The notes: generated by a model not told the origin, from the letters alone. A DNA stretch of 64,000 nt from an uncultured bacterium (GCA_963783355.1 CAWANF010000001.1:326776-390775), one strand, 5' to 3'. Shown: positions 1 to 41,742, numbered from the stretch's first letter. Program-made: numbers and translations.

Positions 1-860
1 CATCCAACATTTACTTTGTTACCTCCGATTCCCTCAAAGGCCCTGTTCATACAAATGGAACAATTCATGTTTCCGGCAACCCTGTATTTGAAGGCCAGGT
101 GACCAGTCCAAATCAGTGGTCAGGTTCCGGAAGCCCCAAATTCTTGGGAGGATATAACTTTAACAGCAGTTCGGTACAGTTGCCTACCAATTTTACTGCT
201 CTCGATAATATGGCATCCAATGGTGGTTTACAATTTTCAAATACTATAAAAGTCCTGTTTAATTCAGATGGAACTGTAGATATCAGTCAGCAACAAAAAA
301 CATGGGGAGGTTGGACCGTAGGATATGTTTATTCCTGGAGTACTCCCCAATCGTATGATCTTTCGAATTATAATGGAGTAATCACTTCCAGTCAAAATGT
401 ATACGTTCAGGGAGACTTGAATGGACAGGTTACTATTCATTCGGATGGAAATATTCATATAACCGGAGATTTAACCTATGCCGACAATCCGGTGACAGAT
501 CCAAATTCGAAAGATATGCTGGGCCTGGTCAGTAATAATAATGTTATAGTTGACGATGGTGCCGAATCGGTAAATGGTACGAATGATTTAACGATACAAG
601 CCAGTATTCTGGCTTCTAATTCCTTCTACGTACAGGATTATAATAATACGTATATCGGCACGAGAGGAAACTTAAACTTATTAGGTGGCGTCATACAAAA
701 TACCCGCGGCCCAGTAGGTACTTTTATGTCGTATGGTGGAAATATCACCAGCGTATCGGGTTACAGTAAAAGATACGATTACGACAACAGGTTAATGAGT
801 CAATGGCCACCGGGCTATCCACTTGAAGATTCTTATTCTATTGTATCCTGGAAAGAATAA
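1..860 (+). CDS. Large PilX-like pilus-associated protein, 5'-truncated by the window edge (paralog of 11688..12935)
   Basis: The reading frame is open from base 3 (SNIYFVTSDSLKGPVHTNGTIHVSGNPVFEGQVTSPNQW...) and is collinear with residues about 130-415 of the 11688..12935 product. The listed GTG at 99 is therefore internal. Both copies share the C-terminal block GYSK.Y.YDNRLMS.WPPGYPL.DSYSIV.WKE. Confidence 0.6.
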   Translation, partial: SNIYFVTSDSLKGPVHTNGTIHVSGNPVFEGQVTSPNQWSGSGSPKFLGGYNFNSSSVQLPTNFTALDNMASNGGLQFSNTIKVLFNSDGTVDISQQQKTWGGWTVGYVYSWSTPQSYDLSNYNGVITSSQNVYVQGDLNGQVTIHSDGNIHITGDLTYADNPVTDPNSKDMLGLVSNNNVIVDDGAESVNGTNDLTIQASILASNSFYVQDYNNTYIGTRGNLNLLGGVIQNTRGPVGTFMSYGGNITSVSGYSKRYDYDNRLMSQWPPGYPLEDSYSIVSWKE

Positions 861-889
861 GAAGTCATTTTCACCTGTAATGATCGATA

Positions 890-935
890 GCGGATAAACA
901 AAATATTTATTCTTTGTTTATCCGCCTTCTGTTTT
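890..935 (+). terminator. Rho-independent terminator after the first PilX-like gene
   Basis: Perfect 13-bp stem gcggataaacaaa (890-902) / tttgtttatccgc (913-925) with a 10-nt loop, followed by T-rich cttctgttttgtt. Confidence 0.6.
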
Positions 936-1478
936 GTTAAATTGATGGTTTGAAGCCTTTTACGCAAATTTATATTAAAATAATATAATTATTTAGATAT
1001 TTATTAAATGCAATAATAACAATTATTTATATATCTATGTAATTAAATTTATTAAAAATTTTTAATCAATATATTTGCACTTGATCGGAAAACATCTAAA
1101 TTTGAAAGAAACTCAAGATCTATCGTTAAAAGGTTTATTGTGCCTGTTAATGATACTAAATATCGGGGGGCTAATGACAATAAGTATTTCGTTACTTATC
1201 GTTAGCAGAAATATTAAAAAATACATAGAATGGGTAATTCAAAAATTTAACCCTATAGCATATCTTCCCCCTGTAAAACCCGAAATCATACAAGAATTTC
1301 GGAAATCTCCTTTTAAATTATATATCTATAAATCATTATTTATTATAGTATTAAGGGCTATAGTATCTGTGTGCTCCGATGATTTTGAAGATTTTAGCTG
1401 TCAGGTGGAATGTTTACCTGCAAATAAATTTCGTATAAAAATTTATCCAATATTCAGAACTAAACGATTGGAATTTAA

Positions 1479-2720
1479 ATGGAAGTGAGTAACCAACTTA
1501 TCGACCTTCATGAATTACTAAAACCTCTCATTCAGAAGGTTCCTAAGTCTGTCACCGGCATAGAACGTCATTTGAAAATTGCAGATATCATAGAACAGCA
1601 ATCGGATGAGTTCAGAATGAAACTCAGGCAGATCATAGACTTTTACCTGGAAGAAATGATTCGTCTGGAAGCATCTGATATTGATTTGGGTGGTCCTGGC
1701 TGTGATGGCAAAGTATGGTATCGGGTATATGGGGATAAAAATCCAGGGATAGAGAAAGATACTTATTCGCTCACGGAAACGGACTTCTTGCTACATAACA
1801 TTTTGATGCCCCAGCAAAGAGAATACCTGTTGGAAGAGCGGAATCTGGATTTTTCATACATGATTAATGAGTATTCAGACACTCCGCAAAGATATCGTGC
1901 CGACATGTATTTTGATCTGGATCACCTGGCTCTGAATATGCGTAAGATTGATAATACGATTCGATCATTCAAGGGACTTGGCTTGCACCCTGAAGTAGCA
2001 AAAGCCCTGAGCCTGAAATATTACAAATATGGTATGTCACTGGTAACGGGGATAACGGGTTCGGGTAAGTCTTCAACGTTAGATACCATAATTGACGCCA
2101 ATAACCGAACATTACCAGCACATATAATTATTATTGCATCACCTGTTGAGTTAATTCATCAGCCGATAAAATCTATCGTTCGGCATCGTGAAGTCGGTAA
2201 AGATGTTAAATCCTTCAAAGAAGGTGCTATTCAGGCTTTACGTCAGGATCCCGACATCATTATGATTGGAGAGCTTAGGGATCCTGAAACCATCATGACG
2301 GCACTGGAAATTACTGATTCAGGCCATAAAACTTTCAGCACACTACACACATCGTCAGCTATGGAAAGTATTGAACGTATTTTGGGAGAAGTTCCAGTAG
2401 CTGAGCAGGAGCGTGTGAGGAATCGTTTAGCTGACGTGCTCACTTGCGTTATCAGTCAAAAGTTGGTATCGAGTGTCGACGGAAAACGAGTTTTGGCAAA
2501 AGAAGTTCTGATAACAACTCCTTCGGTGAAAGCTGCTATTCGAAATAATAATATCGGTGAAATATATCAGATGATGATGGAAGGTGGTGATACTGGCATG
2601 CATTCCATGGAGCAAGATCTAAAAAGATTATATGATGAGGGGAAAATTACCAAAGATGAGGCATTAAACAATGCCAATAACAAAAAACGTTTGGCTGACC
2701 TTTTGAAATATGCGTATTAA
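1479..2720 (+). CDS. pilT: Type IV pilus retraction ATPase, PilT/PilU family
   Basis: Walker A GITGSGKSSTLD, Asp-box/Walker B DPDIIMIGELRD, His-box GHKTFSTLHTSSA. The N-terminus has ASDIDLGG in place of the usual ASDLHL. Size and the lack of a GspE-type N-domain fit PilT. An alternative ATG at 1617 would give a more canonical protein of about 367 aa. Confidence 0.85.
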   Translation: MEVSNQLIDLHELLKPLIQKVPKSVTGIERHLKIADIIEQQSDEFRMKLRQIIDFYLEEMIRLEASDIDLGGPGCDGKVWYRVYGDKNPGIEKDTYSLTETDFLLHNILMPQQREYLLEERNLDFSYMINEYSDTPQRYRADMYFDLDHLALNMRKIDNTIRSFKGLGLHPEVAKALSLKYYKYGMSLVTGITGSGKSSTLDTIIDANNRTLPAHIIIIASPVELIHQPIKSIVRHREVGKDVKSFKEGAIQALRQDPDIIMIGELRDPETIMTALEITDSGHKTFSTLHTSSAMESIERILGEVPVAEQERVRNRLADVLTCVISQKLVSSVDGKRVLAKEVLITTPSVKAAIRNNNIGEIYQMMMEGGDTGMHSMEQDLKRLYDEGKITKDEALNNANNKKRLADLLKYAY

Positions 2721-2744
2721 TCACTCATTAAAATACCCGGCACC

Positions 2745-4439
2745 TTGAGTAAAAAAGAATTCGTTGGCTTAGTACTTGATGGAGATATCATTCAGGTCGC
2801 ACATCTTTCGATTGCGAATAAGAAGCTTTATCTCTCAAAAATTGATAAAATTACTCTTTCAGAGAATCCTGAAAACCATAAAAACAACACCGAAGATGAT
2901 TTGGGGTTGGAAGATGTTTTCGGAATTGAAGAAACGGTAGAAGCGGAAGAATCGAATAGCGAAATTGATGATAAATCGGGTGAGGAAGATGATATTCTAG
3001 CCTTGGTGGGTGAAGATGATCCCGAAATTCAATCCGATGAAATGGTGATACAAGGACTGCTTTCCAGTATCAATATGAAGCAGGTTGATATCGGATTGAA
3101 TATTCCATCGGGAACAACGGTTTTTCAGGTTTTCAAAGATGAAAATTATAAAGACCTGAAAAATAAAGAACTCCTGGAAATCATACAGGACAAACTCGAA
3201 ACACTGTATGGTTCTCCGAAATCATCTGACAGTTTTGCCCGGGAGATTCGTTCTGACGGCGCGTTAGTCTTGGCCTCCAATGAGAATGAGTCGGTATTTC
3301 TGGATTTGGTTGAACGGAGTAAAACATTATATCCCGGTAAGGTATTTATCCGGGAAGTGTTGCCTGACGAAGGAATATTAATAGATTTGGTTCGGGCTAA
3401 TTACCAATTAGATGAAAATGAAGTAACCGGTATCGTTTTACTGGGAACTAAAACAAGTCGCTTGATTTTCATGAAAGGCCGTGAGCTTTGGCTGGTTTCC
3501 CCTGTCATTAATGAAGGAAAAAATTCGAGCCATGTGCTTGGCACTATATTCAGCAAAATCTTATTCCAGCTAGATGCCGGGGAACTGCCAAGTCTCGAAC
3601 GTATCATACTGGCTAACAATTGGCTAGGTGAGAAATCAGTAGATTTTTTTCAGAAAAACTTTCCTGATATCCTTGTTGAGGAATTCAAATTTAATCCCGA
3701 AAAAATTGAATTTGATTCCAAACTAGATGAAGAAGCGGTCAGCCATTATACAACAGCTATTGGAATTGCGTGGGCGGCAACCGGATTAAATGCTAAGGAG
3801 TTCAACAATTATTCATTTTTACCTGAATATATCAGGGAGCGTCAAAAACTGTTCAAACTGGAATGGCATGGTGTTGTTCTGTTATTACTGATAGCTTTAA
3901 CCCCCATTTGGTTCAATCATTTTTATGGCATTAATAACAATAGAATTTTAAAGCTGAAGAATGATTTGGAAAGAACACAGATCCAATTGAATAATATTCA
4001 TTCCATCGTCGTCGGCACCAATTACTTAAGCCAGAAATACACCACTGATAATGAACGACTGAAGTATGTTAAAGAATTGAGTGGAGGTACGTTAAAGTGG
4101 AGTACGACGCTGCAGATTATCAATGATGGTTTTAAAAATATCAAGGGAGCATGGATAACATCAATGCAAACAGCCAAAAACGGGATATCCATTCAGGGTT
4201 ACAGTTTATACCGGGATAAAATTCCTGAAATAACGGCAATTTTTGCTAATGCCACGCTTCAAAGTGTAAGTATTGCCAAAATAAGAGAATTGCAGGCTTA
4301 CAAGTACAGCATTTTTATTAATAAGGTTGTTAGTGATTCCGCAAAATTTTCCCCGATTCATAATGAAAAATCAAATTATGCTTTTGATTCCGGGAAAATT
4401 AAGAGCGGACTCTTGACTTCGGTTAAAGATCATAAATAG
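2745..4439 (+). CDS. PilM-like (actin-fold) N-terminal part fused to a PilN-like TM plus coiled-coil part
   Basis: TTG start. The N-terminus EFVGLVLDGDIIQVAHL resembles the first strand of PilM/FtsA-like proteins. One TM helix (GVVLLLLIALTPIWFNHFY) lies about two-thirds along, followed by a coiled-coil-like segment (LKLKNDLERTQIQLNNI), as in PilN. An acidic low-complexity insert follows the first ~45 aa. The gene sits between pilT and a PilO-like gene. Confidence 0.55.
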   Translation: MSKKEFVGLVLDGDIIQVAHLSIANKKLYLSKIDKITLSENPENHKNNTEDDLGLEDVFGIEETVEAEESNSEIDDKSGEEDDILALVGEDDPEIQSDEMVIQGLLSSINMKQVDIGLNIPSGTTVFQVFKDENYKDLKNKELLEIIQDKLETLYGSPKSSDSFAREIRSDGALVLASNENESVFLDLVERSKTLYPGKVFIREVLPDEGILIDLVRANYQLDENEVTGIVLLGTKTSRLIFMKGRELWLVSPVINEGKNSSHVLGTIFSKILFQLDAGELPSLERIILANNWLGEKSVDFFQKNFPDILVEEFKFNPEKIEFDSKLDEEAVSHYTTAIGIAWAATGLNAKEFNNYSFLPEYIRERQKLFKLEWHGVVLLLLIALTPIWFNHFYGINNNRILKLKNDLERTQIQLNNIHSIVVGTNYLSQKYTTDNERLKYVKELSGGTLKWSTTLQIINDGFKNIKGAWITSMQTAKNGISIQGYSLYRDKIPEITAIFANATLQSVSIAKIRELQAYKYSIFINKVVSDSAKFSPIHNEKSNYAFDSGKIKSGLLTSVKDHK

Positions 4440-4454
4440 TAAAGTTGCAAACAT

Positions 4455-5303
4455 ATGTCATATGCTTTAAGAAATACCTTGATTTTATTAGCTGTTCTGG
4501 GAATTCTTTCCTTTAGCGGATGGGGTTATTTGCATTTCATACAAAGTAAAGAAATTGTCACTTTAGAAGCGCAGATTAAAAGTACAAAGCAAAAATTGAG
4601 GAATGATAACAATGTTGCCGATCGGTACCAATCGGTTTTAAAACAATATGTTATCATGCAGGCCAAGCTTCAGCAATTCAATAAGGTGTTGTTTCCGAGG
4701 CTTGATGCCAGTGATGTATATGCTTATTTGGATAAGGTAAGTCGTGGAAATGCTTATTTAAATATTAATTTCACTCTGAAAGATTCGGTTAAGCACGAGA
4801 AGTATGGCTACATAAAAAGCAGCCTTGTGGGGGATGGGAATTACAGAAACCTGTATAATCTCATTTATGTATTAGAACATAGTAGAGCAATCAATAAAAT
4901 TCAAAATTTGGTTATTAACCCTGTTAACGAAGTGGATAAATACAGCCAGGTCAACTATTCCTTTGATCTGGATAGCTATTACGACAGGAGCCCGTCACCT
5001 GAAAAAGTATCTATAAAGCTGGTTAGTTCCGGTGGCAAGGTTAGACGTAATCCATTTTATCCATTGATTCGCAGTATAAAACCAAATGATGAAAACCTGC
5101 CTAATGTAGAACAGAGTAAGCTGCTTGCCGTAGGTACGAACTTTATTTTTATGGTCGACCAGGATGGCAAGATTGATAAACTGTCAATCGGTGATAAAGT
5201 ATATCTTGGAACGCTCGATACTGTAAATATTACCCAAAAGACAGCCACTTTTATGCTTAATAAAGGCGGAATTTTAGATAAAGTAACCCTAAAGGTCCAG
5301 TAA
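4455..5303 (+). CDS. PilO-like bitopic protein with a possible PilP-like C-terminal beta domain
   Basis: N-terminal TM helix (TLILLAVLGILSFSGWGYLHFI) followed by a coiled coil (LEAQIKSTKQKLRND). The C-terminus (KLSIGDKVYLGTLDTVNITQKTATFMLNKGG) resembles the PilP core. The stop abuts the secretin start (5303/5304). Confidence 0.45.
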   Translation: MSYALRNTLILLAVLGILSFSGWGYLHFIQSKEIVTLEAQIKSTKQKLRNDNNVADRYQSVLKQYVIMQAKLQQFNKVLFPRLDASDVYAYLDKVSRGNAYLNINFTLKDSVKHEKYGYIKSSLVGDGNYRNLYNLIYVLEHSRAINKIQNLVINPVNEVDKYSQVNYSFDLDSYYDRSPSPEKVSIKLVSSGGKVRRNPFYPLIRSIKPNDENLPNVEQSKLLAVGTNFIFMVDQDGKIDKLSIGDKVYLGTLDTVNITQKTATFMLNKGGILDKVTLKVQ

Positions 5304-6545
5304 ATGTCATCAATGCAAAGAACATCTATCCCCAAAATCCTTTTAATGCTTGCTGTAGGGTTCCTGCTTTTGGGAACCACAGTATCACAATCGTTTGCCC
5401 AGGATAAATTACCGGTTCGGGAACATACGAATCCGGACGAAATGATTTCTTTGGGTAAAGATATGTCTTTCAGTCAGGCAATTGATATTCTGAATACTTT
5501 TTCTCAAAAGTTTGATAACAAATTCATTCTCAATCGATCTACTGCAAAGGGGGCGATTGGTGTGAGTCTGCCTCCGATGTATTGGTACGACGCTCTTAAG
5601 TATATTACTGAGACAAAAGGGATTGTAATAGAACCACACGACAAATATTACGAATTGAAAGATGCCCCGTCTGAAAACAATAACCAGGTTCAGCCGACAG
5701 CAGCCAATGGTCAAAAAGGCCCCAAAATTGATACAAAAACACGGGAAGTGCGTATATCAGCTACATTCTTTGATGGGAGTCGTACTGCTTTCCAGGAACT
5801 GGGCATCGATTGGTCGACATTTAAAGATGGAATTGTTCAGATTGGTGGAACCGGCGCAACGTCCGTGGCCAATGACTACTTTTCTGTTCAAACGCTGAAA
5901 CCGATTGAGATAGGACATGGTATATCAGTTCAGGGATTATTTAAAGCTTTTGAATCAAAAAATCTTGGTCAGATATTGGCGCGGCCGACAATCAAAGTCA
6001 TGGATGGGATGGAAGGCCATATTCAGGTAGGTCAGGACTTTTCTATCAATCAGCGTGATTTCGCAGGAAACGTGGTGACAAAGTTCTTTAGTGTCGGTAC
6101 CATTTTAACTGTTACACCGCATATTATCACAGAAAACGACACTACGTTTATTTATATGAAACTGCACGTAGAGCGTTCGACCGCCCAGCCGGACCCGGTT
6201 AGTACAATCGTCAATAAGCAATCTGCTGATTCCGATATTATGCTGTTAAGCGGGGAATCCACAGTTATTGCCGGACTATATCAGACAGAGGTTAATAAAA
6301 TCAGAAAAGGTATTCCTATCTTAAAGGATTTGCCGGCGTGGTTTTTCGGGCTCAGATATTTATTCGGTTATAATTCGAAAGAATATAAAGAGCGGGAACT
6401 GGTAATTTTGATTAAAGCAAGTATCGACCCGGGCCTCAAACAGAGAATGAAAGAAGAAAAGAAATCAACACAAGAGATTTTGGATCACGAGCGTGCAAAA
6501 ATGAATAAAGAAAATGAAATTTCAAAAAAGGGAACGAAATACTAG
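5304..6545 (+). CDS. pilQ: Secretin (PilQ/GspD family), short form
   Basis: Signal peptide ending SFAQ. Secretin-domain hallmarks are present: ILARPTIKVMDGMEGHIQVGQDF, GTILTVTPHI, SGESTVIAGLYQ, GIPILKDLPAWFFGLRYLFG, RELVILIKASI. At 413 aa it has no room for AMIN domains. Confidence 0.85.
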   Translation: MSSMQRTSIPKILLMLAVGFLLLGTTVSQSFAQDKLPVREHTNPDEMISLGKDMSFSQAIDILNTFSQKFDNKFILNRSTAKGAIGVSLPPMYWYDALKYITETKGIVIEPHDKYYELKDAPSENNNQVQPTAANGQKGPKIDTKTREVRISATFFDGSRTAFQELGIDWSTFKDGIVQIGGTGATSVANDYFSVQTLKPIEIGHGISVQGLFKAFESKNLGQILARPTIKVMDGMEGHIQVGQDFSINQRDFAGNVVTKFFSVGTILTVTPHIITENDTTFIYMKLHVERSTAQPDPVSTIVNKQSADSDIMLLSGESTVIAGLYQTEVNKIRKGIPILKDLPAWFFGLRYLFGYNSKEYKERELVILIKASIDPGLKQRMKEEKKSTQEILDHERAKMNKENEISKKGTKY

Positions 6546-6567
6546 TTGTTAATTCTGAAAATGTGTT

Positions 6568-6608
6568 AAGCCCTGACTGAATTAATATTGGTCAGGGCTT
6601 TTATTTTA
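6568..6608 (+). terminator. Rho-independent terminator after the secretin gene
   Basis: Perfect 10-bp stem aagccctgac (6568-6577) / gtcagggctt (6591-6600) followed by ttttatttt. Confidence 0.7.
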
Positions 6609-7068
6609 TATAGTCTTTTGGGTGGTGTCTATCCTTATTCATCAGGTCGATTCTTAAGAAATAGTATGTTTTGTCTTTTTATTCCCATCTTTTGGCAGGT
6701 ATCTCAAGGTTTTCAAGATTAGATTTATAAGTGATATTGAGAAATAGCCCTAATTAAAAAGGTTATATCACAATCTTATTTGAAAATTTGATGAAAGTTT
6801 AATTAATCCGATCGGTTAGCAATTACGAATTGTTAATAGAGGCTAATGAAAAATGTGGTTTAATGTTCTTTCAGATATTGTGTAATTCCTGTTAATTTTA
6901 AGGAAAATAAACAGATAAGATCGATGTAATTTGCTGGGGGATAACTATTAGATGTTTATAACATAACTGATAATAAGAATATCTTTCAGTACTATTTCAC
7001 TAAGTAAATGGCAAAATTAGGGTCATAATAAGGGTAAGATAATCAGCCATTTTATTAATGAGGGATAA

Positions 7069-7467
7069 ATGGGTCAACAACAGTTACTCATCGTACTAAT
7101 AGTCGCTATTATAGTCAGTATAGCAACGTTATTAGCGGTTAACATTCTGAAAATGAATGCAAAAACCTCTAATCGTGATTCGGTAAGACAGGATGTTTTT
7201 ACGATAGCGGCAGAAGCTCAAAGCTGGTATATCAAACCTCAGGTTTTAAAAGGCGGCGGCAATACTTTTAAAGGGGTGAATTTTGACAAAATAGGTTTTG
7301 GTTACGATTCATTGATAAGCGAAACAGATGTGATGAACGGCAATGGGGAATACAAAATGGTGGTAACCGATTCGGTTATCACAGTTACAGCCATACCTGT
7401 TCATGATAAACAAAATGTATTGAAGGCAAAGATAAAACGAGCTGCAATAACAATAGAAAGCGATTAA
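7069..7467 (+). CDS. Pilin-like protein with a non-canonical N-terminus (candidate major subunit)
   Basis: 132 aa. The N-terminus MGQQQLLIVLIVAIIVSIATLLAV is a pilin-type hydrophobic helix but lacks F/M-T-L-I-E and has no Glu at +5. An in-frame TAA at 7066-7068 excludes a longer leader. The gene is first in the pilC-pilB unit, with GAGGGA upstream of the ATG. Confidence 0.5.
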   Translation: MGQQQLLIVLIVAIIVSIATLLAVNILKMNAKTSNRDSVRQDVFTIAAEAQSWYIKPQVLKGGGNTFKGVNFDKIGFGYDSLISETDVMNGNGEYKMVVTDSVITVTAIPVHDKQNVLKAKIKRAAITIESD

Positions 7468-7541
7468 TAGTAGTATCACGGATTTGGGTATGTTTAATAA
7501 AATTGAAAATAGAAACCAAAAAACTCAGATGAGGGGTCGTT

Positions 7542-8885
7542 ATGGCATCATTTAGATTAACAGGTATTACGGCCCAGGGGAAAATTGTTCAGGGTGAATT
7601 TGAAGCCCGTAGCAAACACGAAGCAAAACGCAGAGCTGAAAAATTAGCTAACAGCAGACAGTTTTCAATTAAATCCATTGAACAAAAGGGGATCTATTCA
7701 TATAAAGTAAATCGTCCTGGAAAACTTAAACCGGTCATTAAAGGACAACAGGAAGCCTATAATAAAGAAGAAGTTGAAAAGGCATTAAACAAACTGGGTT
7801 ACAATGTTCTGCGCATCGAAAAGCAGCTGATTACTTTTAAAACAAAAGTCCCGACAAAAGATATAGTTACTTTTATCAGGTTGTCTGCTGATTTATTAAA
7901 GCAAAAATTGCGTTATGATGAGATTTTAAGCCTTTTATACGAGGACACCCAAAACAAGGGTATGAAAGAAACCATCAAACAGATACAGAAGGATCTAAAA
8001 GATGGTAAAGAAGGGGCAGATGTTTATAGTAAACACGAAGATGTATTTGGGGAATTTGCAGCATATATGCTGAGCGTAGCTTCCACAAGTGGTAATATGG
8101 CCCTGGTTTTTGAAAGCACAGCAAAATTTTTAGAAAGGAAGGCGGCGTTTCGGCGTAATTTGAGAAAATCATTACTCATGCCTTCCATTACGGTTCTTGC
8201 TGTCATCGGGGTCACGTTATTTTATATCGGTTATATTTTCCCGGCAATGTCGGAGGTATTTTTAACACTGAAAATTAAGTTGCCTCCAATGACTGCTGCA
8301 ACATTGAATTTCAGCCATGCACTGCAAAACAACTGGATGTTTATACTGATGTGTTTGTTTACACCGATTGCAGCTTTCGTTACATATATCCAGACATCCA
8401 ATGGGAAGCTCTGGCTCGATCGCACCATTATCAAGCTGCCTGTCATTGGTGATTTGATGCATAAAACGAGTATCGAAATTTTTGCCCGCGTTTTTTACAC
8501 ACTGTATAGTGGCTCCGGACAAAATATAGAGGTCATTCGTACTGCAGCCGAAGCTTGTCAGAACAGATATATGGAGCAAAGAATTAAAAATATAGCGATT
8601 AAGAATATGCTTCAGGGTGGGGCCGGACTTGTAGAATCTTTAGAAGAAACAGAAATATTTACTAAGACTGCTCTTAGTCGATTCCGCTTGGGGGCTGAAT
8701 CGGGTTCATTGAAAGAAAATGCAAGACAGCTTGCTGAATATTATGAAATACAAACAACGTACAAAATGGATACAGCTGTCGATGTAATAAATTTATTTGT
8801 GAATTTCTTCATAATGATAGCACTTACCGCTATTACCATTATTTCATCAGAAACAGCAATCATTCAACCGCATTTTGGCGGATAA
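7542..8885 (+). CDS. pilC: Type IV pilus platform protein PilC (T2SS F family)
   Basis: 447 aa with a duplicated GspF-like architecture: two cytoplasmic helical domains, each followed by hydrophobic helices (LAVIGVTLFYIGYIFPAM; FFIMIALTAITIIS). The N-terminus is PilC-like (FRLTGITAQGKIVQGEFEA). Confidence 0.85.
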   Translation: MASFRLTGITAQGKIVQGEFEARSKHEAKRRAEKLANSRQFSIKSIEQKGIYSYKVNRPGKLKPVIKGQQEAYNKEEVEKALNKLGYNVLRIEKQLITFKTKVPTKDIVTFIRLSADLLKQKLRYDEILSLLYEDTQNKGMKETIKQIQKDLKDGKEGADVYSKHEDVFGEFAAYMLSVASTSGNMALVFESTAKFLERKAAFRRNLRKSLLMPSITVLAVIGVTLFYIGYIFPAMSEVFLTLKIKLPPMTAATLNFSHALQNNWMFILMCLFTPIAAFVTYIQTSNGKLWLDRTIIKLPVIGDLMHKTSIEIFARVFYTLYSGSGQNIEVIRTAAEACQNRYMEQRIKNIAIKNMLQGGAGLVESLEETEIFTKTALSRFRLGAESGSLKENARQLAEYYEIQTTYKMDTAVDVINLFVNFFIMIALTAITIISSETAIIQPHFGG

Positions 8886-8906
8886 GAGATTAAAAGAGGT
8901 TTAGAT

Positions 8907-10685
8907 ATGGCAAAAGTAGATACTAGACGACATATTGGTGATATCCTGGTGCAGAGAGGAATCATTTCTGATGAGCAACTTTCCCAGGCACTGAGTATTC
9001 AGGATAAAAGTGTCGATAATTCACCGCGTAGGCTTGGCCAGATATTAAGTACCAAAGTAGGTATCGACCGGCATCTTGTTATAAAAGCAATAGCTGAAAT
9101 TTATGCTTTCAGAGAAATTAATCTCGAGGCCCAGGATTTTAATAAAGATCATCTCAAGAATATCAAAAACCTGATTAATCGCCTGCCTAAAGATGTTGTC
9201 GAAGAATTAATGTTGCACGATGCCCTGCCATATTCTACCAGTAATGACCGTATTATCATTGCTACATCCGACCCTACCGATCCCGTTATCCCTAATCTTG
9301 CCGAGAAATTAAACTTTAAACATTACGAATTGGCCTATTGCAGGGCTGAGAATCTCAGTAAGCTGATCAACCTGGTTTATGAACAGAAAAATGAATTCCT
9401 GGAACTGTTAGATGAAATAAATATTGATCAGTCCGGCATCATTCCCGATGACGATGATGAGATTGATGAAGATGAAATTGATGCTGAAATCAATCAAAGT
9501 ATGCTAAATTCCCTTGTTGAGGGAATGTTGATTGAGGCCGTTCATCAGGGAGCCAGTGATATTCATATCATTCCACAGGATCCGACAACAAGTGTCATTC
9601 ATTTCCGGATAGATGGAAAGCTAAAAGTCTGGCACATGGTAGAGCATGTAAAACCGGAAGCCTTGACGGCTGTGATCAAAGATAAATCTCGTAATGTAGA
9701 CCGGTTTGAGCGTGAAAGCTCACAAGACGGTTTTATTCAACGAAAAATAGACTCAATAAATATCCGCTATCGTGTATCAATCATGCCTATTGTGGGGCAA
9801 GAGTTCGATCGTAAGTTTGAATCTATTGTTATTCGGGTTCTGGATGACAGAAAAGTTATTAGTGATTTAAACAAACTTGGCTTGCAAAAAAAGGCGAAAG
9901 ATGACTTCGTTAAGGCGATTAATAAACCATCCGGAATCGTAATCATTACCGGCCCGACCGGTAGTGGTAAATCAACGACACTGGTTGCTGCTCTTTATTC
10001 TGTAATTGATCCGACTAAAAATGTTCTCACGGTCGAGGAACCGGTAGAATATCTCATTAAGGGAGCCAGACAATTAAAGATCAGTAACCATATGACATTT
10101 GATCAGTCCATGCGTGGTATTCTTCGTCACGACCCGGATATTGTTCTTGTTGGTGAGATTCGTGATTTAAAAACAGCTGAAATTGCTATTAAACTGGCAA
10201 ACACGGGCCACCTGACCTTCTCGACTTTGCACACGAATGATGCGCCAAGCGTAATTTCTCGTCTTTATAAGATGGGAGTTGAGCCATTCCTGATAGCAAA
10301 TGCCGTTAATTTGGTTATGGCCCAACGCCTGGTAAGAAAATTATGTGATCATTGCAAAGAAGAAGTAACTGATTTGGAACCAGAATATGCCAAAGGCCTT
10401 GGTTTTAATGATGAAGAAATAAAGAATACGAAATTTTATAAACCGGTCGGTTGTGAACATTGTCACGGTGGTTACAAAGGCCGGGTAGCAATTATGGAGG
10501 CACTCTATTTCTCAAAAAACATTAAGAAAATGATTTTGACCTCCGGCAGCGACATTGATGAAGAAATGATTCGCGATCAGGCCATTCAGGAAGGGATGCT
10601 TACATTACGGGCTTCCGGACGGGAACGGATTAAGGAAGGCCTGACAACAATGGAAGAAATTGCTGCAATTACAGTAGGAGAATAA
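8907..10685 (+). CDS. pilB: Type IV pilus assembly ATPase PilB (GspE family)
   Basis: Walker A GPTGSGKSTTL, Asp box DPDIVLVGEIRD, His box GHLTFSTLHTND, tetracysteine Zn motif CDHC...CEHC. The N-terminus is a T2SSE_N-like domain (GDILVQRGIISDEQLSQAL). Confidence 0.9.
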   Translation: MAKVDTRRHIGDILVQRGIISDEQLSQALSIQDKSVDNSPRRLGQILSTKVGIDRHLVIKAIAEIYAFREINLEAQDFNKDHLKNIKNLINRLPKDVVEELMLHDALPYSTSNDRIIIATSDPTDPVIPNLAEKLNFKHYELAYCRAENLSKLINLVYEQKNEFLELLDEINIDQSGIIPDDDDEIDEDEIDAEINQSMLNSLVEGMLIEAVHQGASDIHIIPQDPTTSVIHFRIDGKLKVWHMVEHVKPEALTAVIKDKSRNVDRFERESSQDGFIQRKIDSINIRYRVSIMPIVGQEFDRKFESIVIRVLDDRKVISDLNKLGLQKKAKDDFVKAINKPSGIVIITGPTGSGKSTTLVAALYSVIDPTKNVLTVEEPVEYLIKGARQLKISNHMTFDQSMRGILRHDPDIVLVGEIRDLKTAEIAIKLANTGHLTFSTLHTNDAPSVISRLYKMGVEPFLIANAVNLVMAQRLVRKLCDHCKEEVTDLEPEYAKGLGFNDEEIKNTKFYKPVGCEHCHGGYKGRVAIMEALYFSKNIKKMILTSGSDIDEEMIRDQAIQEGMLTLRASGRERIKEGLTTMEEIAAITVGE

Positions 10686-10688
10686 TAA

Positions 10689-11072
10689 ATGGAACGTGCT
10701 GATTTAATTATGGTTATTGGGGCAATGATGATATTTTCGGTATTGTTACTGAACGTTAATAGATTTACAGTCCATAACGAAAAAATTAATACCGATATTG
10801 AGATTCAATATACAGCTCTGTCTATAGCACAGAATTTAATTGATGAAGCACGATGGAAATCGTTTAGTTCACTAAGTGATTACAATAACGTGAGTACTGT
10901 CGACTCTACCAAAGTGGGTGTATACCAGGTTGATTCAACGGTTAATTATGTAACACCTGATGATACCGAAGTAAATTCGGGAAGTGCTACTAACTACAAA
11001 CGGTTATCTGTAACAGTAAGTAGTAAATTAATGGCTCATCCGGTAACACTGAGCTATGTTAAAAGTAAGTAA
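10689..11072 (+). CDS. Small pilin-like (minor pilin-like) protein, non-canonical N-terminus
   Basis: 127 aa. MERADLIMVIGAMMIFSVLLLNV forms an N-terminal hydrophobic helix followed by a small globular part. Stop codons lie immediately upstream in frame (10683-10688). The gene follows pilB, where minor pilins usually sit. Confidence 0.4.
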   Translation: MERADLIMVIGAMMIFSVLLLNVNRFTVHNEKINTDIEIQYTALSIAQNLIDEARWKSFSSLSDYNNVSTVDSTKVGVYQVDSTVNYVTPDDTEVNSGSATNYKRLSVTVSSKLMAHPVTLSYVKSK

Positions 11073-11108
11073 ATTTCATAAATATTTGGGTTTGGGAGAG
11101 GTGAGTTT

Positions 11109-11663
11109 ATGAATAACACATTGATAGCTAGTTTTTTGGTTGGTGGAATTTTATTGCTGGCTATTTTAAAAGTTAGTAATAGGATGATCGTCAGTTCCGA
11201 TCAAACCACTATAAACCGCGTCATTAAAGAAAATGCTGATGATGTCGGGCAGGTTTTGGATCTGGATTTCAGAAGAATGGGAATGGGTATACAAAGTGGA
11301 GCCATTACCTTTGCTTCAGCTACTAAAATTACTTTTAAAAGTGATACTAGTGGTACCGGAACTCCTGATGTAATTACCTGGTCATTTGACCAGTCACAAG
11401 GAGTTTCTGTAACTCCTAATCCCGATGATCATCCATTATATCGAATTGTTAATGGAGTATCACATCGTGTGGGGATGGCCATTTCATCATTCCAGCTTAC
11501 ATATACTTTGAAGGATGGGACGGTAACCAGTACACCATCAGATTTATCCAACATCCGCCGGGTCGATGTCCAAATGGTCAACGAATCACCGGGTTCAGTA
11601 GGAAATGAATATTTGAAAACGTACTGGCAAAAATTATATATACCTGCAAATATTCAATTTTAA
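11109..11663 (+). CDS. Minor pilin-like protein (PilW-like size and layout), non-canonical N-terminus
   Basis: 184 aa. MNNTLIASFLVGGILLLAILKV looks like a degenerate FTLIE box (NTLIA, with Glu5 replaced by Ala). A GGGAGAGGTGAG Shine-Dalgarno-like motif lies upstream. There is no upstream in-frame start before the stop at 11079-11081. Confidence 0.45.
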   Translation: MNNTLIASFLVGGILLLAILKVSNRMIVSSDQTTINRVIKENADDVGQVLDLDFRRMGMGIQSGAITFASATKITFKSDTSGTGTPDVITWSFDQSQGVSVTPNPDDHPLYRIVNGVSHRVGMAISSFQLTYTLKDGTVTSTPSDLSNIRRVDVQMVNESPGSVGNEYLKTYWQKLYIPANIQF

Positions 11664-11687
11664 AAGTTTCTTTTTATCTGAAATATT

Positions 11688-12935
11688 ATGGGAAAATCTC
11701 TGCTAATAATAGTAAGCGGTTTATTGTTGGTATTCGGAATTCACCAGATATCCGTAAATAACCAACAGAAAGCTATGGCTGTTCGTAATATTAACTATGC
11801 AAAGAATCAACAGGCGAAAGATATAGCAAGCAGTATGGTAGCCATGGCTATAAGCAAGTTGAATTCCGATATAACCTGGAGAACCGGGTTAAGTTACCAA
11901 AATTTTTTGGGTGGAAGCGGATCTTTGACGGTCGAAGATAATTCTACTAATTCATCACTGGGTCCTTTTGATATTTTACTTTATGCAACCGGAATTTATG
12001 ACGGAACCAATTCAAATATCCAGGTTTTGATGAGAAGAACCTCATATTCAAAATTTGCTTATTTCACCAATGTTGAACCAACTATTTATTTTGTAACGGG
12101 CGATACCATTAAAGGCCCGCTACATACAAATGGAACCCTTCATATTTCAGGAAATCCCGTTTTTGAAGGAGAAGTGACTAGTCCGAATAACTGGAGTGGC
12201 ACCGGGAACCCTAAGTTTTTAAAAGGGTATGATTTTAACAGTCCAGCAATTTCTTTACCGAACAGCCTCACAGACCTGACAAATTCGGCATCCAGTGGCG
12301 GACTACAATTTACAACACCTTCCCAAATTATTTTTAACAGTGATGGAACGATTGACGTAAGTCAGCAGATAGTAACAAAAACCCGTACTTGGTATGGATA
12401 TGTTAATGTTTACAGCTGGGGTCCTCCTCAAACATACAATTTATCCAATTATAATGGCATAATATCATCAACAAAAGATATTTATGTCAAAGGAGACGTA
12501 AACGGACAGGTGACTGTTCATTCAAGTGGAAATATCCATATAATCGGAGATCTTACCTATGCTGATAACCCTATAACGAATCCAAATTCTACAGATTTCT
12601 CGGGATTGATCAGTGATAATAATGTCATAGTAGATGATGGTGCAGAAACAGACCACGGAACAAGTGACGTAACCATTGATGCGACGATTATGGCATTGAA
12701 TTCTTTTACTGTTCAGGATTATCAAAGTGGTTCCAGCCGAGGACAATTAAAGATTTATGGTGGTGTAGTACAGAATACCCGTGGTGCCGTCGGAACATTC
12801 AGCTCTTATTATGGAACGACTTATACCGCTTCAGGTTATAGCAAATTATATGAATACGATAATCGTTTGATGAGTCGCTGGCCTCCGGGATATCCGCTCA
12901 TTGATTCTTATTCAATAGTCACATGGAAAGAATAA
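11688..12935 (+). CDS. Large PilX-like pilus-associated protein (paralog of 1..860)
   Basis: 415 aa. The N-terminus MGKSLLIIVSGLLLVFGIHQIS followed by a helical region (NYAKNQQAKDIASSMVAMAISKL) has the layout of a PilX N-terminal domain. The C-terminal ~280 aa are repetitive and beta-rich. The protein ends with YDNRLMSRWPPGYPLIDSYSIVTWKE. Confidence 0.55.
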   Translation: MGKSLLIIVSGLLLVFGIHQISVNNQQKAMAVRNINYAKNQQAKDIASSMVAMAISKLNSDITWRTGLSYQNFLGGSGSLTVEDNSTNSSLGPFDILLYATGIYDGTNSNIQVLMRRTSYSKFAYFTNVEPTIYFVTGDTIKGPLHTNGTLHISGNPVFEGEVTSPNNWSGTGNPKFLKGYDFNSPAISLPNSLTDLTNSASSGGLQFTTPSQIIFNSDGTIDVSQQIVTKTRTWYGYVNVYSWGPPQTYNLSNYNGIISSTKDIYVKGDVNGQVTVHSSGNIHIIGDLTYADNPITNPNSTDFSGLISDNNVIVDDGAETDHGTSDVTIDATIMALNSFTVQDYQSGSSRGQLKIYGGVVQNTRGAVGTFSSYYGTTYTASGYSKLYEYDNRLMSRWPPGYPLIDSYSIVTWKE

Positions 12936-21959: not shown

Positions 21960-22704
21960 GGGTCTAGTGAAGCAAACAACTTAGAGGGGATCATCCCTAA
22001 GTTTCTTCAGCTAGACTTTGTATAAGTTATGGTTTCGATGATTAAAACGAAATTCAGTTTCCTTTCAAATGAAGATAAAACAGAGGTTTTAGGACACCCT
22101 TGAATTTGGTCAATCGACGCTTGGCAATACTCCAGAACGACTCAATCCCATTGATAGAACTTGTCGGGTTAGCGACTTCGTCCTGGTCATGCCGAACACG
22201 ATAATGTTTGTCATAACCAACATCCACCAGACCATCGTAACTGCGACATTCATCGCTGTGGATTACGCTTTCGGATCTACTTTACCTCGTATAATGCTCT
22301 GAAGCATCTTTTTACGGTCATCAGGAACGATCTCGGTATAGACTCTGCCTTGGCGTTTAAAGATACCAACCACAATCGTTTTACCCGAAGCACCCCGACC
22401 TCGTTTGCCGGGGATCCGTCTGGGTCCGAAGTAGGTTTCATCCACTTCGATTGTATCTGCAACGGGAGCTTGTTGTTTCGACCATGGGGTTATCTTTCTT
22501 CTTAATCGCCCAAATATAGCCGTTACCGATCGCCGACTTAGTCTGGTTAATTCAGCACTGTCTGTGGCCGTAAAATCCATGGCAAAATAACGCATCAACG
22601 GTCGAAATTTGGCTTCAGAAATCTTTGAAAGTTTATAATACTTGTTAACCATTACATAGCAAATTATTGCAAAGATTTATAATATACTATGCTTCACTAG
22701 ACCC
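21960..22704 (-). mobile_element. IS1595-family-like insertion sequence (745 bp) with 15-bp perfect terminal inverted repeats
   Basis: GGGTCTAGTGAAGCA at 21960-21974 is the exact reverse complement of 22690-22704. The interior encodes an ISXO2-like/IS1595-type transposase. Confidence 0.75.
22011..22652 (-). pseudogene. IS1595-family transposase, disrupted by at least two frameshifts
   Basis: Frame 1 (22263-22652) reads ...IEVDETYFGPRRIPGKRGRGASGKTIVVGIFKRQGRVYTEIVPD...GKVDPKA*. A second frame continues VIHSDECRSYDGLVDVGYDKHYRVRHDQDE...INGIESFWSIAKRRLTKFKGV...FYLHLKGN*. A third frame gives ETEFRFNHRN...*. Together these reconstruct the usual ~220-aa protein. Confidence 0.7.
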
Positions 22705-26428: not shown

Positions 26429-27178
26429 ATGAAAACTTCAGCATCGAGACTAGAAAAATACCTGCTTTTATTATTTGTATTCCTGGTCGTTGAATTCGCG
26501 CCCAGAGCCGGATCCATTCTGGCCGATCACTATCAAAATCTATTCACTTTTATCGATCCCAATCATACTTTTTCATGGGGAATCATCCATCATATAGTTC
26601 AATTCCTGATTCCTCTGATCATTATGATTTTTTGGCCCAATCGTTCAATAAAAGACTGGGGATTTCGGATCGGAGATGCTAAAAAAGGCATAAAATGGGT
26701 TTATGGATTTACGCTCGTATGGCTCGGTATTTATCTGGTAATAACGATAGGGTTTCTTCTTCAAAATAACATTCCGAAGGTGTATTACGATGTTTCCAAC
26801 ATGCGAAATTTCTTTGGTGAACTCGGATTTCGTACTTTTATCGTCGGGCTGTCAGAAGAAACGTTATTCAGGGCTTTTCCGATTACTTTATTAATTATTT
26901 ACTGGAACCGGCGAATAAATATCTTCCGGTTTACGATCTCACAGGCGGGAATCATGGCGGCCATTCTTTTCTGCTATGCCCATATCGGCTATCATGTTTA
27001 TCCGTTCCAAATCACACATTTTAACGTAATTCAACTTTTTACGGCCGCCGGATTAGGGTTGTTTTATGCAATTGTATTTGAAGAGACGAAAAGCATTCTT
27101 TATCCCATTATCATTCACAGCATCTCGGATGTCATTCCTGTTTTGGGCGTGTTTATTCTTCACGTATTGAAGTCATAA
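26429..27178 (+). CDS. CPBP family intramembrane glutamic endopeptidase (CAAX protease / Abi-like)
   Basis: Polytopic, 249 aa. Motif 1 is EETLFR (E-E-x-x-x-R), motif 2 is FCYAH (F-x-x-x-H), and motif 3 is HSISD (H-x-x-x-D/N). Confidence 0.8.
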   Translation: MKTSASRLEKYLLLLFVFLVVEFAPRAGSILADHYQNLFTFIDPNHTFSWGIIHHIVQFLIPLIIMIFWPNRSIKDWGFRIGDAKKGIKWVYGFTLVWLGIYLVITIGFLLQNNIPKVYYDVSNMRNFFGELGFRTFIVGLSEETLFRAFPITLLIIYWNRRINIFRFTISQAGIMAAILFCYAHIGYHVYPFQITHFNVIQLFTAAGLGLFYAIVFEETKSILYPIIIHSISDVIPVLGVFILHVLKS

Positions 27179-32512: not shown

Positions 32513-33754
32513 TTACGGAATGAACATGGTTCCTGATGCCAGATGATGGCATAAACTGCGGTACGTATTTTCAATAATATCCTTGTCAGGTTGATTCCCG
32601 ACTGATTTTATAATTCGTTCGGAAAGCGTACCATGGTCCAGGATAACTTCCAACGGAGCCCGAAATAATTCATTTTCACGTTTCTTGTAAGGAAGAATTT
32701 CATCAACAATGTGACGCCACAAATCCCGGATGGATATACTGTTTCGGTTCGTGATTCCAAATTGGATAAGAAAATCAGGATCCGAAATCACCGTTTCAGA
32801 GCCTTTTTTTATGGTATTAATCAGAATTGAAGACAGGTAATGTTCCGACCACTTTTTTTGATCCTCGAAGCAGGTCCAACGTTCATTGACCAGTGCTTTT
32901 AAAGTTGAAGTAATGATATGGACGATAGCTAAATCTGCCAGTGGGCATTCCTGGATATCGAGCACGCGTATCTCAATGGCACCCCGATCGAAACGGGCAA
33001 TAGCACCCCGGGAATTCAGCCATTCTTCCTGCAGTATTCCCTCTAAATCAAAAGGAGCAATATCGCGGTAAATCGGTTTCAGAATCTTATCCTGATATTC
33101 CTGCAATGTCGTAACGGCCTCGGGAACGACCTGTCCGGTAATGGAAGGGATTTTGATTTGATTTTTCCGGTAATACTCGAGCCGTGTATCCCTCAGACCC
33201 GTAATTTTTCCTTCAATAATGGGAGATGATGCTGAAAGTGCAGGTAATAAAGGCAAGAGCAGGCGAATAGCCGTATGGAGTTTTCCAAATTCAAGATCAG
33301 ACGCAAAAGGCAGGTTGATATGCGTACTTTGCAGATTCGACCAACCGTGTCCGGTGCAATCAAAAATGCGATTGTAGGAATGATAGATCGCAGTTTGTTC
33401 ATGAGGCCAAAGTTGAGCGTCTATATTTGGATTCATAAACGGATGAGCAGCTGTCGGCATGAGTTGCGCATTAAAATCTTGCAGAATAGCATTTATTTCA
33501 TCGATACTGTTTTGAAAAGCATCAGGGAATATTGAAATATCTTTTGCCGGACCGTTCGTTTTTATCTCGACGACATGTAGAACCAGTTCATTCGACCATG
33601 CCACAAGTCCGCGATCAACTTCATTCACATAGGTTCCCGCCACAGATTCGAGTACCTTATCGGCGATAGGAGAGACATTTAGCGTGTCTTTATCGACTAT
33701 CATGTATTCGAGCTCAACACCATAGGCTTCAAAGAGGTGGAGTGGATATTTCAT
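32513..33754 (-). CDS. Glutamate-cysteine ligase family 2 (GCS2 / YbdK-like carboxylate-amine ligase)
   Basis: 413 aa. The sequence FEAYGVELEYMIVD...WSNELVLHVVEIKT...HINLPF...IEIRVLD follows the GCS2 pattern. The start overlaps the ATP-grasp stop (ATGA at 33751-33754). Confidence 0.8.
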   Translation of the reverse strand: MKYPLHLFEAYGVELEYMIVDKDTLNVSPIADKVLESVAGTYVNEVDRGLVAWSNELVLHVVEIKTNGPAKDISIFPDAFQNSIDEINAILQDFNAQLMPTAAHPFMNPNIDAQLWPHEQTAIYHSYNRIFDCTGHGWSNLQSTHINLPFASDLEFGKLHTAIRLLLPLLPALSASSPIIEGKITGLRDTRLEYYRKNQIKIPSITGQVVPEAVTTLQEYQDKILKPIYRDIAPFDLEGILQEEWLNSRGAIARFDRGAIEIRVLDIQECPLADLAIVHIITSTLKALVNERWTCFEDQKKWSEHYLSSILINTIKKGSETVISDPDFLIQFGITNRNSISIRDLWRHIVDEILPYKKRENELFRAPLEVILDHGTLSERIIKSVGNQPDKDIIENTYRSLCHHLASGTMFIP

Positions 33755-35226: not shown

Positions 35227-35229
35227 AAA

Positions 35230-35943
35230 TTATTTAAAAGGAGGTGTTAAAATTAAAAAGTTGGCATCGTATGTGACGATTCCAAGCAGAATAGCATTTA
35301 TAAAACGTTGTATATCAACAGAATACAGGTGTCCACCCGATGGATTTTCCAGGAATGGATCATTTACAATTACTTCACGGACGCCAACGGAATATCCGGA
35401 TAAGACCACGAAATGTCCTACGGGTTCTCCGCGTAAATCATCGTAATGACATTGCGGATTACAACATTCCCGTTTGGTTCGGTACAGATACGTTGCACTC
35501 AATCCGGCTAGTATTGGTATTGATTTTCGCAGATAACGTTTTAATAAATCAGCGGTGAGCTCCTTATGGAAAACAACACCACCAAGTTTCAGGAATTCCA
35601 GATAAGCTTCGGTGGAACGATTTAATCGCGGATTTCTCTTGTATTCCAATTGTTTTTCCAGCTTTTCAATCAAATTTATATCCTTATCCATAAACCAGGA
35701 AGGATCAAAAAGCTCTAAGTTATAAGTACAGATTTTGGCTTTATATCCTCTTTTTAATGCATGAATAGCTAAATAAACAGCCAAAGTCCCACCATTTTCG
35801 AGGTAATGGACCTGATTAATTACGTCATCAAGTGAGATAGTATCCCCATAATACGCATAAACGGCATGCAAACTGGTAGGCCCGCATGTTGAATCGGTCG
35901 GCTGGGGTAAAATCTCTACATCAAATTTCTTCATTTTTCCCAA
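35230..35943 (-). CDS. C39-like (papain-fold) cysteine peptidase
   Basis: PTDSTCGPTSLHAVYAYYG is a candidate catalytic Cys context, as in C39 peptidases. GHFVVLSGY gives a candidate His, and VNDP a candidate Asp. ATG 35934 is a likelier start than TTG 35943. The stop lies 3 nt before the ATP-grasp start. Confidence 0.55.
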   Translation of the reverse strand: MGKMKKFDVEILPQPTDSTCGPTSLHAVYAYYGDTISLDDVINQVHYLENGGTLAVYLAIHALKRGYKAKICTYNLELFDPSWFMDKDINLIEKLEKQLEYKRNPRLNRSTEAYLEFLKLGGVVFHKELTADLLKRYLRKSIPILAGLSATYLYRTKRECCNPQCHYDDLRGEPVGHFVVLSGYSVGVREVIVNDPFLENPSGGHLYSVDIQRFINAILLGIVTYDANFLILTPPFK

Positions 35944-40605: not shown

Positions 40606-40850
40606 AATCAATTTTAAGCACACCTAAACATTCGAAGAGAACTGTCTATCTTAAAGATTGTAATTGTTGAATATTAATCTTTGAATGTTCATTGCCCAAA
40701 CTCATTTTTATAAGTTGTTTTATGACTTTACTTAAAAGTCTTTCAAAGTCATCCGCTGAAGTTGACGGTTTAAGACATTGGTTAATTTCAGAGTCGATAA
40801 GTCTGATATTATTGTATCAGGTATATTCATAATTGCAATTGTTTAGAGAA

Positions 40851-41420: not shown

Positions 41421-41742
41421 GCAGTTTTGTGGTTGTAGAGACCATGATATTACTAATCGGATATTATTATTCGTTGAGATAAAGGTTATTTCACATGTGA
41501 TACAGATATCAATCATTAGAATTAACAAAGCGATTACAGCCATTTATATATTGAATTGGTCCAAAAACGCAATTATGGAGCTATTCAACTACATAAGTTA
41601 CCGGTAAAATACTATTCACAAATCAAACTATAACTAAAACTATTTTGAAACCGGAAGTACAAAAATTTTGGATTTTATCAGTAGAACTACGCTCTTTTTA
41701 GAGAAGTTACAGCCTTGGGTTCTCTTTCTATTTTTATTAAAG

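Follow-up and report, generated by a model that had tools for sequence, protein, structure and literature searches.

How a type IV pilus machine could work with subunits that lack a class III signal peptide is the question raised by a locus at one end of a 64-kb stretch of DNA from an uncultured bacterium (GCA_963783355.1, CAWANF010000001.1:326776–390775; this whole analyzed stretch is called the window). Type IV filaments are defined by subunits carrying this signal together with a dedicated prepilin peptidase, and both processing and assembly are considered to depend, almost universally, on Gly(-1) and Glu(+5). The pilus locus, at positions 1–12935 on the + strand, encodes a type IVa pilus (T4aP)-type machine, comprising PilB, PilT, PilC, proteins containing PilN- and PilO-like domains and a secretin. 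It also encodes four pilin-like proteins, for every one of which a leader is impossible. The explanation we favor, and hold to be somewhat probable, is that this machine assembles pilins whose N terminus is set by translation initiation, without a prepilin peptidase.

All of the open reading frames (ORFs) and N termini quoted in the original prediction, a reading of the DNA sequence alone, were recovered at their positions in the window. That reading held that longer leaders are ruled out by upstream stops and by the lack of start codons, and a stop codon does lie 1–10 codons upstream of each gene with no start codon in between. The genes at 7069 and 10689 have an in-frame TAA at codon -1. The gene at 11688 has a TGA at codon -3, with AAT ATT alone in between, and that at 11109 a TAA at codon -10, with ATG, GTG and TTG all missing from the intervening codons. 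The sequence GAGGG is located 5–9 nt ahead of the ATG at 7069. The claim that canonical class III signals are absent was borne out both by profiles and by an all-frame motif screen: with a threshold as loose as E ≤ 10, N_methyl and other class III pilin profiles still matched none of the four, and the motif G[FM..][ST]L[IV]E was not found in any frame of the 64-kb window. No Pfam or NCBIfam pilin profile reached its cut-off on any of the four. The window subunits therefore lack the class III hallmark set of basic leader, Gly(-1), hydrophobic +1, Glu(+5) and N_methyl domain. Their N termini, which the original prediction took to be degenerate, instead follow a motif of their own that is strictly conserved (MGQQQ; M-x(2-4)-[Q/E/D/N]-hydrophobic).

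The candidate major pilin is a 132-residue protein (7069–7467, +) that begins with MGQQQ, has no leader, and is encoded next to pilC. A single-sequence search with this protein returned 34 homologs, 34 of 34 beginning MGQQQ. A profile search reached at least 4800 protein clusters; among the matches listed, the MGQQQ start is found throughout, and these clusters are 123–137 residues long and have no precomputed Pfam domain. Joint Genome Institute annotation names many family members PilE. M1-G2-Q3-Q4-Q5 is invariant in 260 unique sequences, and the codons of G2 and Q3–Q5 vary synonymously across the family. As in the window, a stop lies in frame at most 8 codons upstream in 102 of 119 family genes, another in-frame upstream start is present in just two of the 119, and a Shine-Dalgarno-like motif precedes the ATG in 88 of 117. 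Among paralogs within the loci that were found by BLAST and not through the motif, just five differ at their start (MANKELLL in four, MGQKELSI in one), so that position 5 from Met1 alternates between Gln and Glu within the family. These second copies adjoin the MGQQQ gene in the related loci L003 (10507–10872), L004, L005, L015 and L023 (10617–10994).

An AlphaFold2 model of the 132-residue protein, built from the family alignment (predicted local distance difference test score, pLDDT, 83), has a helix from residue 2 to 55 followed by five short β strands, a predicted arrangement that resembles pilin architecture. A near-invariant K-P-x(3-4)-G-G-G-G-N-x-F loop stands directly after the long helix (family columns 56–66). 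Alignment of the family with canonical pilins by hhalign gave a probability of 23% (P 9e-4), and alignment with the family of the 127-residue protein described below gave 31%. In both of these weak alignments Q4 falls near +1 and L8 near +5, an offset of 3. The idea that Met1 is the mature +1 residue, with Gln5 equivalent to Glu5 by descent, was rejected given this offset, which puts Gln5 near +2 and Leu8 near +5; Gln5 as a functional stand-in for Glu5 is possible. A sigma-54 promoter before the pilin gene was also rejected as a general feature, the TGGYAY-N5-TTGCW element being present in 4 of 119 genes.

The three remaining pilin-like ORFs form a triplet at the end of the locus, and the first of them provides the link to canonical pilins. 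This is a leaderless PilV/GspI-like minor pilin of 127 residues (MERADLIMVIGAM...; 10689–11072, +; TIGR02523 PilV, 1e-4). An exhaustive HMMER search found 216 representatives of its family. In the 150 listed of these 216, Met and 2–5 polar residues are followed by the hydrophobic stretch; Gln, Glu, Asp or Asn stands six positions ahead of a conserved Gly-Ala anchor, at position 4–6 from Met1, in 117 of 119, and a few members begin MGQQQ. A class III motif occurs in 1 of the 150 listed, P0257 (MKFIGVNEKG↓MSLIE; arrow, cleavage site), whose gene sits in an operon of three N_methyl pilins (L084). The family profile aligns with P0257, a canonical PilV/GspI-type pilin, over 155 columns and its full length (probability 99.7%, E 1.3e-26), and the AMxxFS segment of the N-terminal helix falls within the aligned region. 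Ordinary minor pilins are therefore either the ancestors or the sister group of the 127-residue family. In P0257, which carries a leader of 10 residues, Gly(-1) and Glu(+5) are both present, whereas the window protein begins at the equivalent of -3, with R3 opposite Gly(-1) and M8 opposite Glu(+5); judged from this alignment, both hallmark residues are lost.

The second member of the triplet is a leaderless minor pilin-like protein of 184 residues (MNNTLIASFLVGG...; 11109–11663, +). Three of 11 orthologs match NF007848, an E. coli "prepilin peptidase-dependent protein" model, weakly (best 6.7e-5), the motifs DFRKxGYG and NPND are conserved, and the family profile found no match among the sequences of solved structures. 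The public gene call for this ORF is a 159-residue protein (P0321) that uses an internal start and so removes the hydrophobic N-terminal helix, which would further hide its pilin-like nature in databases. The third is a large pilin-like protein of 415 residues (MGKSLLIIVSG...; 11688–12935, +) with an N-terminal hydrophobic helix, a DUF4900 match (PF16241, 5e-8) and a β-helix-like C-terminal region, with weak Bactofilin and MinC_C β-helix matches. Its N terminus, MG[RK]xL[LI], is kept in 7 of 8 members compared. A match of this family to inositol monophosphatase (∼0.04, solved-structure sequences) was treated as chance. The 415-residue protein holds the PilX/GspK position, and the triplet as a whole resembles a tip set of the GspI-J-K or PilV-W-X type. 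No fixed position beside the hydrophobic stretch carries a Gly in the minor pilins, which are therefore not PilD substrates at the canonical site.

This arrangement is widespread. Scanning GTDB with a single genome for each species gave at least 524 confirmed MGQQQ loci, mostly in Balneolales and also in Ignavibacteriota, KSB1, Gemmatimonadota and Kryptoniota; cultured carriers in the scan include Gracilimonas tropica, Fodinibius roseus and F. salsisoli. Some 45 loci from five phylum-level groups share the order MGQQQ gene(s), PilC, PilB, an optional triplet of the 127/184/415 type, PilT, PilN fusion, PilO protein and secretin. In these loci the MGQQQ gene, in 1–4 tandem copies and often in 2–4, is always directly upstream of pilC, and the PilT retraction ATPase is kept in every one. 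From this conserved order, the MGQQQ gene occupies the major-pilin position. Kept in ∼45 syntenic loci across several phyla, the arrangement and the N termini are more than chance. A conserved gene for a ∼167-residue protein lies between pilB and pilT in L003 (14051–14569) and in 33 other Balneolaceae loci; it is missing from the window locus, where the triplet stands instead. By eye this protein resembles a cyclic-nucleotide-binding domain, and it could be a pilus regulator.

In the window, the order on the + strand is the 3′ end of a DUF4900 gene, PilT, a 564-residue and a 282-residue protein, the secretin, a hairpin, the 132-residue pilin, PilC, PilB and the triplet. The PilT, PilC, PilB and short AMIN-less secretin named in the original prediction were all identified by Pfam and NCBIfam profiles. 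The PilT-type retraction ATPase (413 residues, 1479–2720, +) matches TIGR01420 pilT_fam at 2.3e-93 (313 bits, against a curated cut-off of 319) and PF00437. PilC, the platform protein (447 residues, 7542–8885, +), contains two PF00482 T2SSF repeats (5e-28) and matches GspF/PilC NCBIfam models at 1e-44 to 1e-47. The assembly ATPase PilB (592 residues, 8907–10685, +) matches TIGR02538 at 1.4e-132 (443 bits, with an equivalog cut-off of 675) and PF00437 at 2.9e-103. The solved structures nearest to it are Geobacter PilB (5tsg, 6olj) and Myxococcus T4aP PilB, at 1e-95; GspE (1e-79) and BfpD (1e-33) are more distant, and the T4aP model scores 443 bits compared with 398 for GspE. The PilB N terminus (residues 10–160) matches PF05157 MshEN at 4e-6 and the MshE-type cyclic di-GMP-binding motif NF053729 at 1.6e-9, just under its cut-off, which suggests that pilus extension may be under cyclic di-GMP control.

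The envelope components are more divergent. A bitopic protein of 564 residues (2745–4439, +) comprises a cytoplasmic N-terminal domain (∼1–370), an FLPEYIRERQK motif, a transmembrane helix and a PilN-like periplasmic domain. It had been called a PilM-PilN fusion. The PilN half stands: a profile of 16 orthologs matches Myxococcus PilN (3jc8_Na) at 6.3e-11 over positions 375–501, and Pfam PilN is matched in 9 of the 16. The PilM half was matched by no Pfam or PDB profile, and a single-sequence AlphaFold2 model of this domain was unusable (pLDDT 38). Similarly, the protein of 282 residues (4455–5303, +) that had been called PilO/P-like has a PilO part, its family profile matching Myxococcus PilO (3jc8_Oa) at 2.3e-6 over positions 17–184 and Pfam PilO being matched in 7 of 14 orthologs; no Pfam or PDB profile identified PilP in the extra conserved C-terminal domain of ∼100 residues, which is possibly PilP-like. 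The short secretin (413 residues, signal peptide, 5304–6545, +) matches PF00263 at 5.9e-31 (residues 215–374) and TIGR02515 PilQ at 4e-23, with no AMIN domain detected by Pfam or NCBIfam profiles, and orthologs of ∼415 residues are present in Ignavibacteriota, KSB1 and Gemmatimonadota. An intrinsic-terminator-like hairpin (6568–6600, +), with a 13-bp stem followed by a T-run, parts the secretin operon from the pilin operon, and ∼470 bp of non-coding DNA separate it from the pilin gene at 7069.

The window opens with the 3′ part of a 416-residue DUF4900 pilin-like gene (1–860, +; ORF 99–860), the third member of a paralogous triplet that starts upstream of the window. ORF 99–860 is 65% identical to the C terminus of the 11688–12935 product. 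The overlapping contig L001 supplies the remainder of this triplet, which encodes proteins of 128 residues (MNDRSDIILLLGAM..., beginning MNDRSD...), 184 residues (MNTGIITSF...) and 416 residues (MGRALLFIV...). It lies directly 5′ of PilT (window 1–860 with L001:40–2319; L086:1–3753), is likewise leaderless, and is 45–63% identical to the downstream copy. In a 95%-identical relative, a second PilB paralog (75% identity) precedes the upstream triplet, giving the layout [PilB′, triplet′], PilT, PilN fusion, PilO protein, secretin, terminator, [MGQQQ, PilC, PilB, triplet]. There seem to be two pilin/PilB assembly modules around a single set of PilT, PilN fusion, PilO protein and secretin.

The absence of a prepilin peptidase gene from the window, also part of the original prediction, was upheld: a Pfam scan of 44 ORFs from the window, each 110 residues or longer and with ORFs nested in longer ones skipped, gave no Peptidase_A24 match. 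Neither pilD nor a canonical pilin gene, which would have been of most interest immediately upstream, was found in the 2.9 kb preceding the window start in the 95%-identical relative. Motif screens for the PilD-type G.GD.K motif and the canonical pilin motif were negative in 80 related loci (∼1.3 Mb). All-against-all clustering of the ORFs from these loci gave no further cross-phylum family and no protease, and a hidden processing enzyme within the locus was rejected on these grounds. An Rce1/CPBP-type intramembrane protease (26429–27178) was considered as a processor and set aside; it is 13 kb downstream and outside the conserved neighborhood of the related loci. The complete genome of Melioribacter roseus P3M-2 has the same locus, with two MGQQQ genes, one of which is MROS_0599, and the published analysis of this genome found neither pilA nor pilD (PMC3534657). 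A literature search of incomplete coverage gave no description of leaderless, MGQQQ or PilD-independent pilins, including in Balneolales, Ignavibacteria and the Fibrobacteres-Chlorobi-Bacteroidetes (FCB) group. Where we searched, then, there were neither canonical pilins or pilD upstream nor a record of such N termini in ordinary T4aP, and the leaderless-pilin design is apparently undescribed as well as widespread.

In the model we favor, the MGQQQ major pilin and three tip-type minor pilins would be made without a class III leader. The start codon would define the mature N terminus, possibly with Met excision, and prepilin-peptidase cleavage would not be involved. The short uncharged N terminus and the ∼22-residue hydrophobic helix would insert as a membrane anchor, from which PilB and PilC would extract and polymerize the subunits, with the minor-pilin triplet priming assembly and PilT retracting the filament. 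We infer that, with Gly(-1) and Glu(+5) lost, the conserved Gln, Glu, Asp or Asn before the hydrophobic stretch (position 4–6 from Met1) probably replaces the polar contact of Glu5 with the neighboring N terminus.

Several points weigh against this model. The relatives were retrieved through the MGQQQ motif itself, and because of this the invariance of the motif is partly inflated. Foldseek found nothing in the PDB at E ≤ 0.001 for the 132-residue model; such a search probably copes poorly with an extended helix and a small head, and we do not count this result against a pilin fold. The MGQQQ profile was also negative against the sequences of solved structures, the best pilin being 8pfb at E 4.2. 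The register that places Gly2 at -2 depends on the two weak alignments, with probabilities of 23% and 31%. Furthermore, the invariant Gly2 of the major pilin, and the MG[RK] start kept in the 415-residue family, would fit a two-residue Met-Gly leader. Gly is the residue that prepilin peptidases need at -1, and Methanococcus pilins have Gln at +1, which forms pyroglutamate. Processing may thus occur after all, if a peptidase or other membrane protease encoded elsewhere cuts MG↓QQQ; the N-terminal Gln may then cyclize to pyroglutamate, and the minor pilins would be processed differently or not at all. In many genomes pilD lies apart from the pilus loci and serves more than one system (Denise et al., 2019, PMC6668835), many Bacteroidota have an A24 peptidase with a separate type II secretion system (T2SS)-like system (PMC5553014), and our peptidase search in the source genome covered the 64-kb window. 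The M. roseus statement, moreover, is a 2013 annotation result and not a dedicated search (PMC3534657). Cleavage at this site is nevertheless unlikely. The 184-residue and most 127-residue family members have no Gly beside the hydrophobic stretch, the homology alignment gives Arg, Tyr, Thr or Gln rather than Gly at -1, and no Glu5 follows the putative cut site. The leader would have a constant length, which is unusual for leaders, and would consist of one residue ahead of Gly with no basic residue, unlike any bacterial class III signal described to our knowledge. The reported lack of pilD in the complete M. roseus genome points the same way (PMC3534657).

A different possibility is that the product of the machine is a short pseudopilus within the periplasm, like those of type II secretion or DNA uptake, with the leaderless proteins serving as piston or membrane-anchored accessory subunits. 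The short ∼415-residue secretin, which lacks AMIN domains, would suit this, as would the GspL-like layout of the protein that joins an N-domain to PilN, and a T4aP-derived system of Bacteroidetes is linked to secretion (PMC5553014; PMC6668835). Against it, PilB gives a higher score with T4aP PilB than with GspE, and the tandem, fast-diverging MGQQQ copies are typical of surface-exposed major pilins. Every locus also has a dedicated PilT retraction ATPase, a component absent from T2SS. We consider a pseudopilus quite improbable; since it concerns the output of the machine and not its leaderless subunits, it is compatible with peptidase-free assembly. That the four ORFs are not filament subunits at all, but small proteins of unrelated origin anchored in the membrane, or pilin genes undergoing decay, with the canonical pilins encoded elsewhere, would explain why no pilin profile passes its cut-off and why the 132-residue model has no structural match in the PDB. 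It sits badly with sequences, positions and a gene order that are strictly kept from phylum to phylum, with the full-length homology of the 127-residue family to a canonical minor pilin, with the match of the 184-residue family to an E. coli minor-pilin model, with the predicted pilin-like architecture of the 132-residue protein, and with the failure of a motif screen of 1.3 Mb from related loci to find a canonical pilin. M. roseus has an intact set of machine genes, yet pilA was reported as not found there (PMC3534657). This last explanation is very hard to sustain.

Compared with the T4aP of Myxococcus xanthus, Geobacter and Thermus, the window locus has clear homologs of PilB (1e-95 to the Geobacter and Myxococcus structures), PilT and PilC, periplasmic domains that match Myxococcus PilN and PilO, a secretin, a pilin gene adjoining pilC-pilB, and small, medium and large minor pilins. 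It differs in that the pilins have no leader, Gly(-1), Glu(+5) or N_methyl domain and that no pilD is found in or near the locus. In addition, the PilN domain is fused to a large cytoplasmic domain with no separate PilM, the PilO protein has an extra C-terminal domain with no separate PilP, and the secretin is ∼415 residues long and lacks AMIN domains. There are three minor pilins rather than four, there is no PilY1, and all parts are in a single locus. The original prediction proposed a divergent, poorly described filament class with subunits unprocessed or otherwise processed. The conserved locus and the failure to find a peptidase or canonical pilin in the DNA searched support this proposal, with one refinement: because the motors are T4aP-like, this is a variant within T4aP-type machines and not an unrelated class.

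The T2SS-like system of Cytophaga hutchinsonii (CHU_3191–3202) belongs to a related phylum; its pilins are likewise divergent, and its PilMNOP-like parts largely escape ordinary searches. It derives from T4aP according to Denise et al. (2019, PMC6668835). The Cytophaga cluster includes a Peptidase_A24 (CHU_3197) and a PF08334 GspG-type pseudopilin, with no pilT among the components listed in the paper (PMC5553014). In contrast, the present system has PilT and MGQQQ pilins, and neither Peptidase_A24 nor PF08334 was found in the window. The presence of PilT, the preference of PilB for the T4aP model and the lack of a PF08334 GspG all set the locus apart from T2SS; the sole T2SS-specific signal in the window is a weak GspM-type match (0.011). 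Archaeal short-leader pilins, the EppA substrates of Methanococcus, would share a mature N-terminal Gln if MG↓QQQ were cut. In the archaeal case the leaders are basic and the peptidase is a dedicated one. Here the motors are of the bacterial T4aP type, and the accompanying minor pilins have no Gly cleavage site.

Other features of the window lie outside the pilus locus. A cluster of three genes at 32513–35943 (−), unrelated to the pilus locus, may form a peptide-modification module; its products are Peptidase_C39-like, RimK-like (an ATP-grasp protein bearing an RLAN domain) and a member of the GCS2 glutamate-cysteine-ligase family. An apparently truncated IS1595/ISXO2-type DDE transposase fragment of 129 residues lies at 22263–22652 (−). 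The G+C content falls to 0.32 at 40001–42000, and 40605–42184 (∼1.6 kb) contains no ORF of at least 110 residues. Rfam gave no match at the gathering threshold across the whole window.

If peptidase-free assembly is correct, cleavage and N-methylation would not be intrinsic to assembly by PilB and PilC, and these loci would provide a natural test of what Glu5 and a free N terminus do. We put at roughly even the chance that these lineages of Balneolales, Ignavibacteriota, KSB1, Gemmatimonadota and Kryptoniota have retractile type IV pili without any prepilin peptidase, with the MGQQQ start replacing the class III signal and Gln playing the role of Glu5. Cultured carriers, namely Melioribacter roseus P3M-2, Gracilimonas tropica DSM 19535, Fodinibius roseus DSM 21986 and F. 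salsisoli, make experiments feasible. A detectable major pilin was needed to call a system in the survey of Denise et al. (2019, PMC6668835). Surveys that require a pilin, whether by TXSScan/MacSyFinder models or by N_methyl counts, therefore miss or misclassify such loci, which is why M. roseus has been described as lacking pilA. Among the abundant environmental lineages of the FCB group, and in Gemmatimonadota, pilus-based adhesion, motility or DNA uptake is thus probably recognized too rarely.

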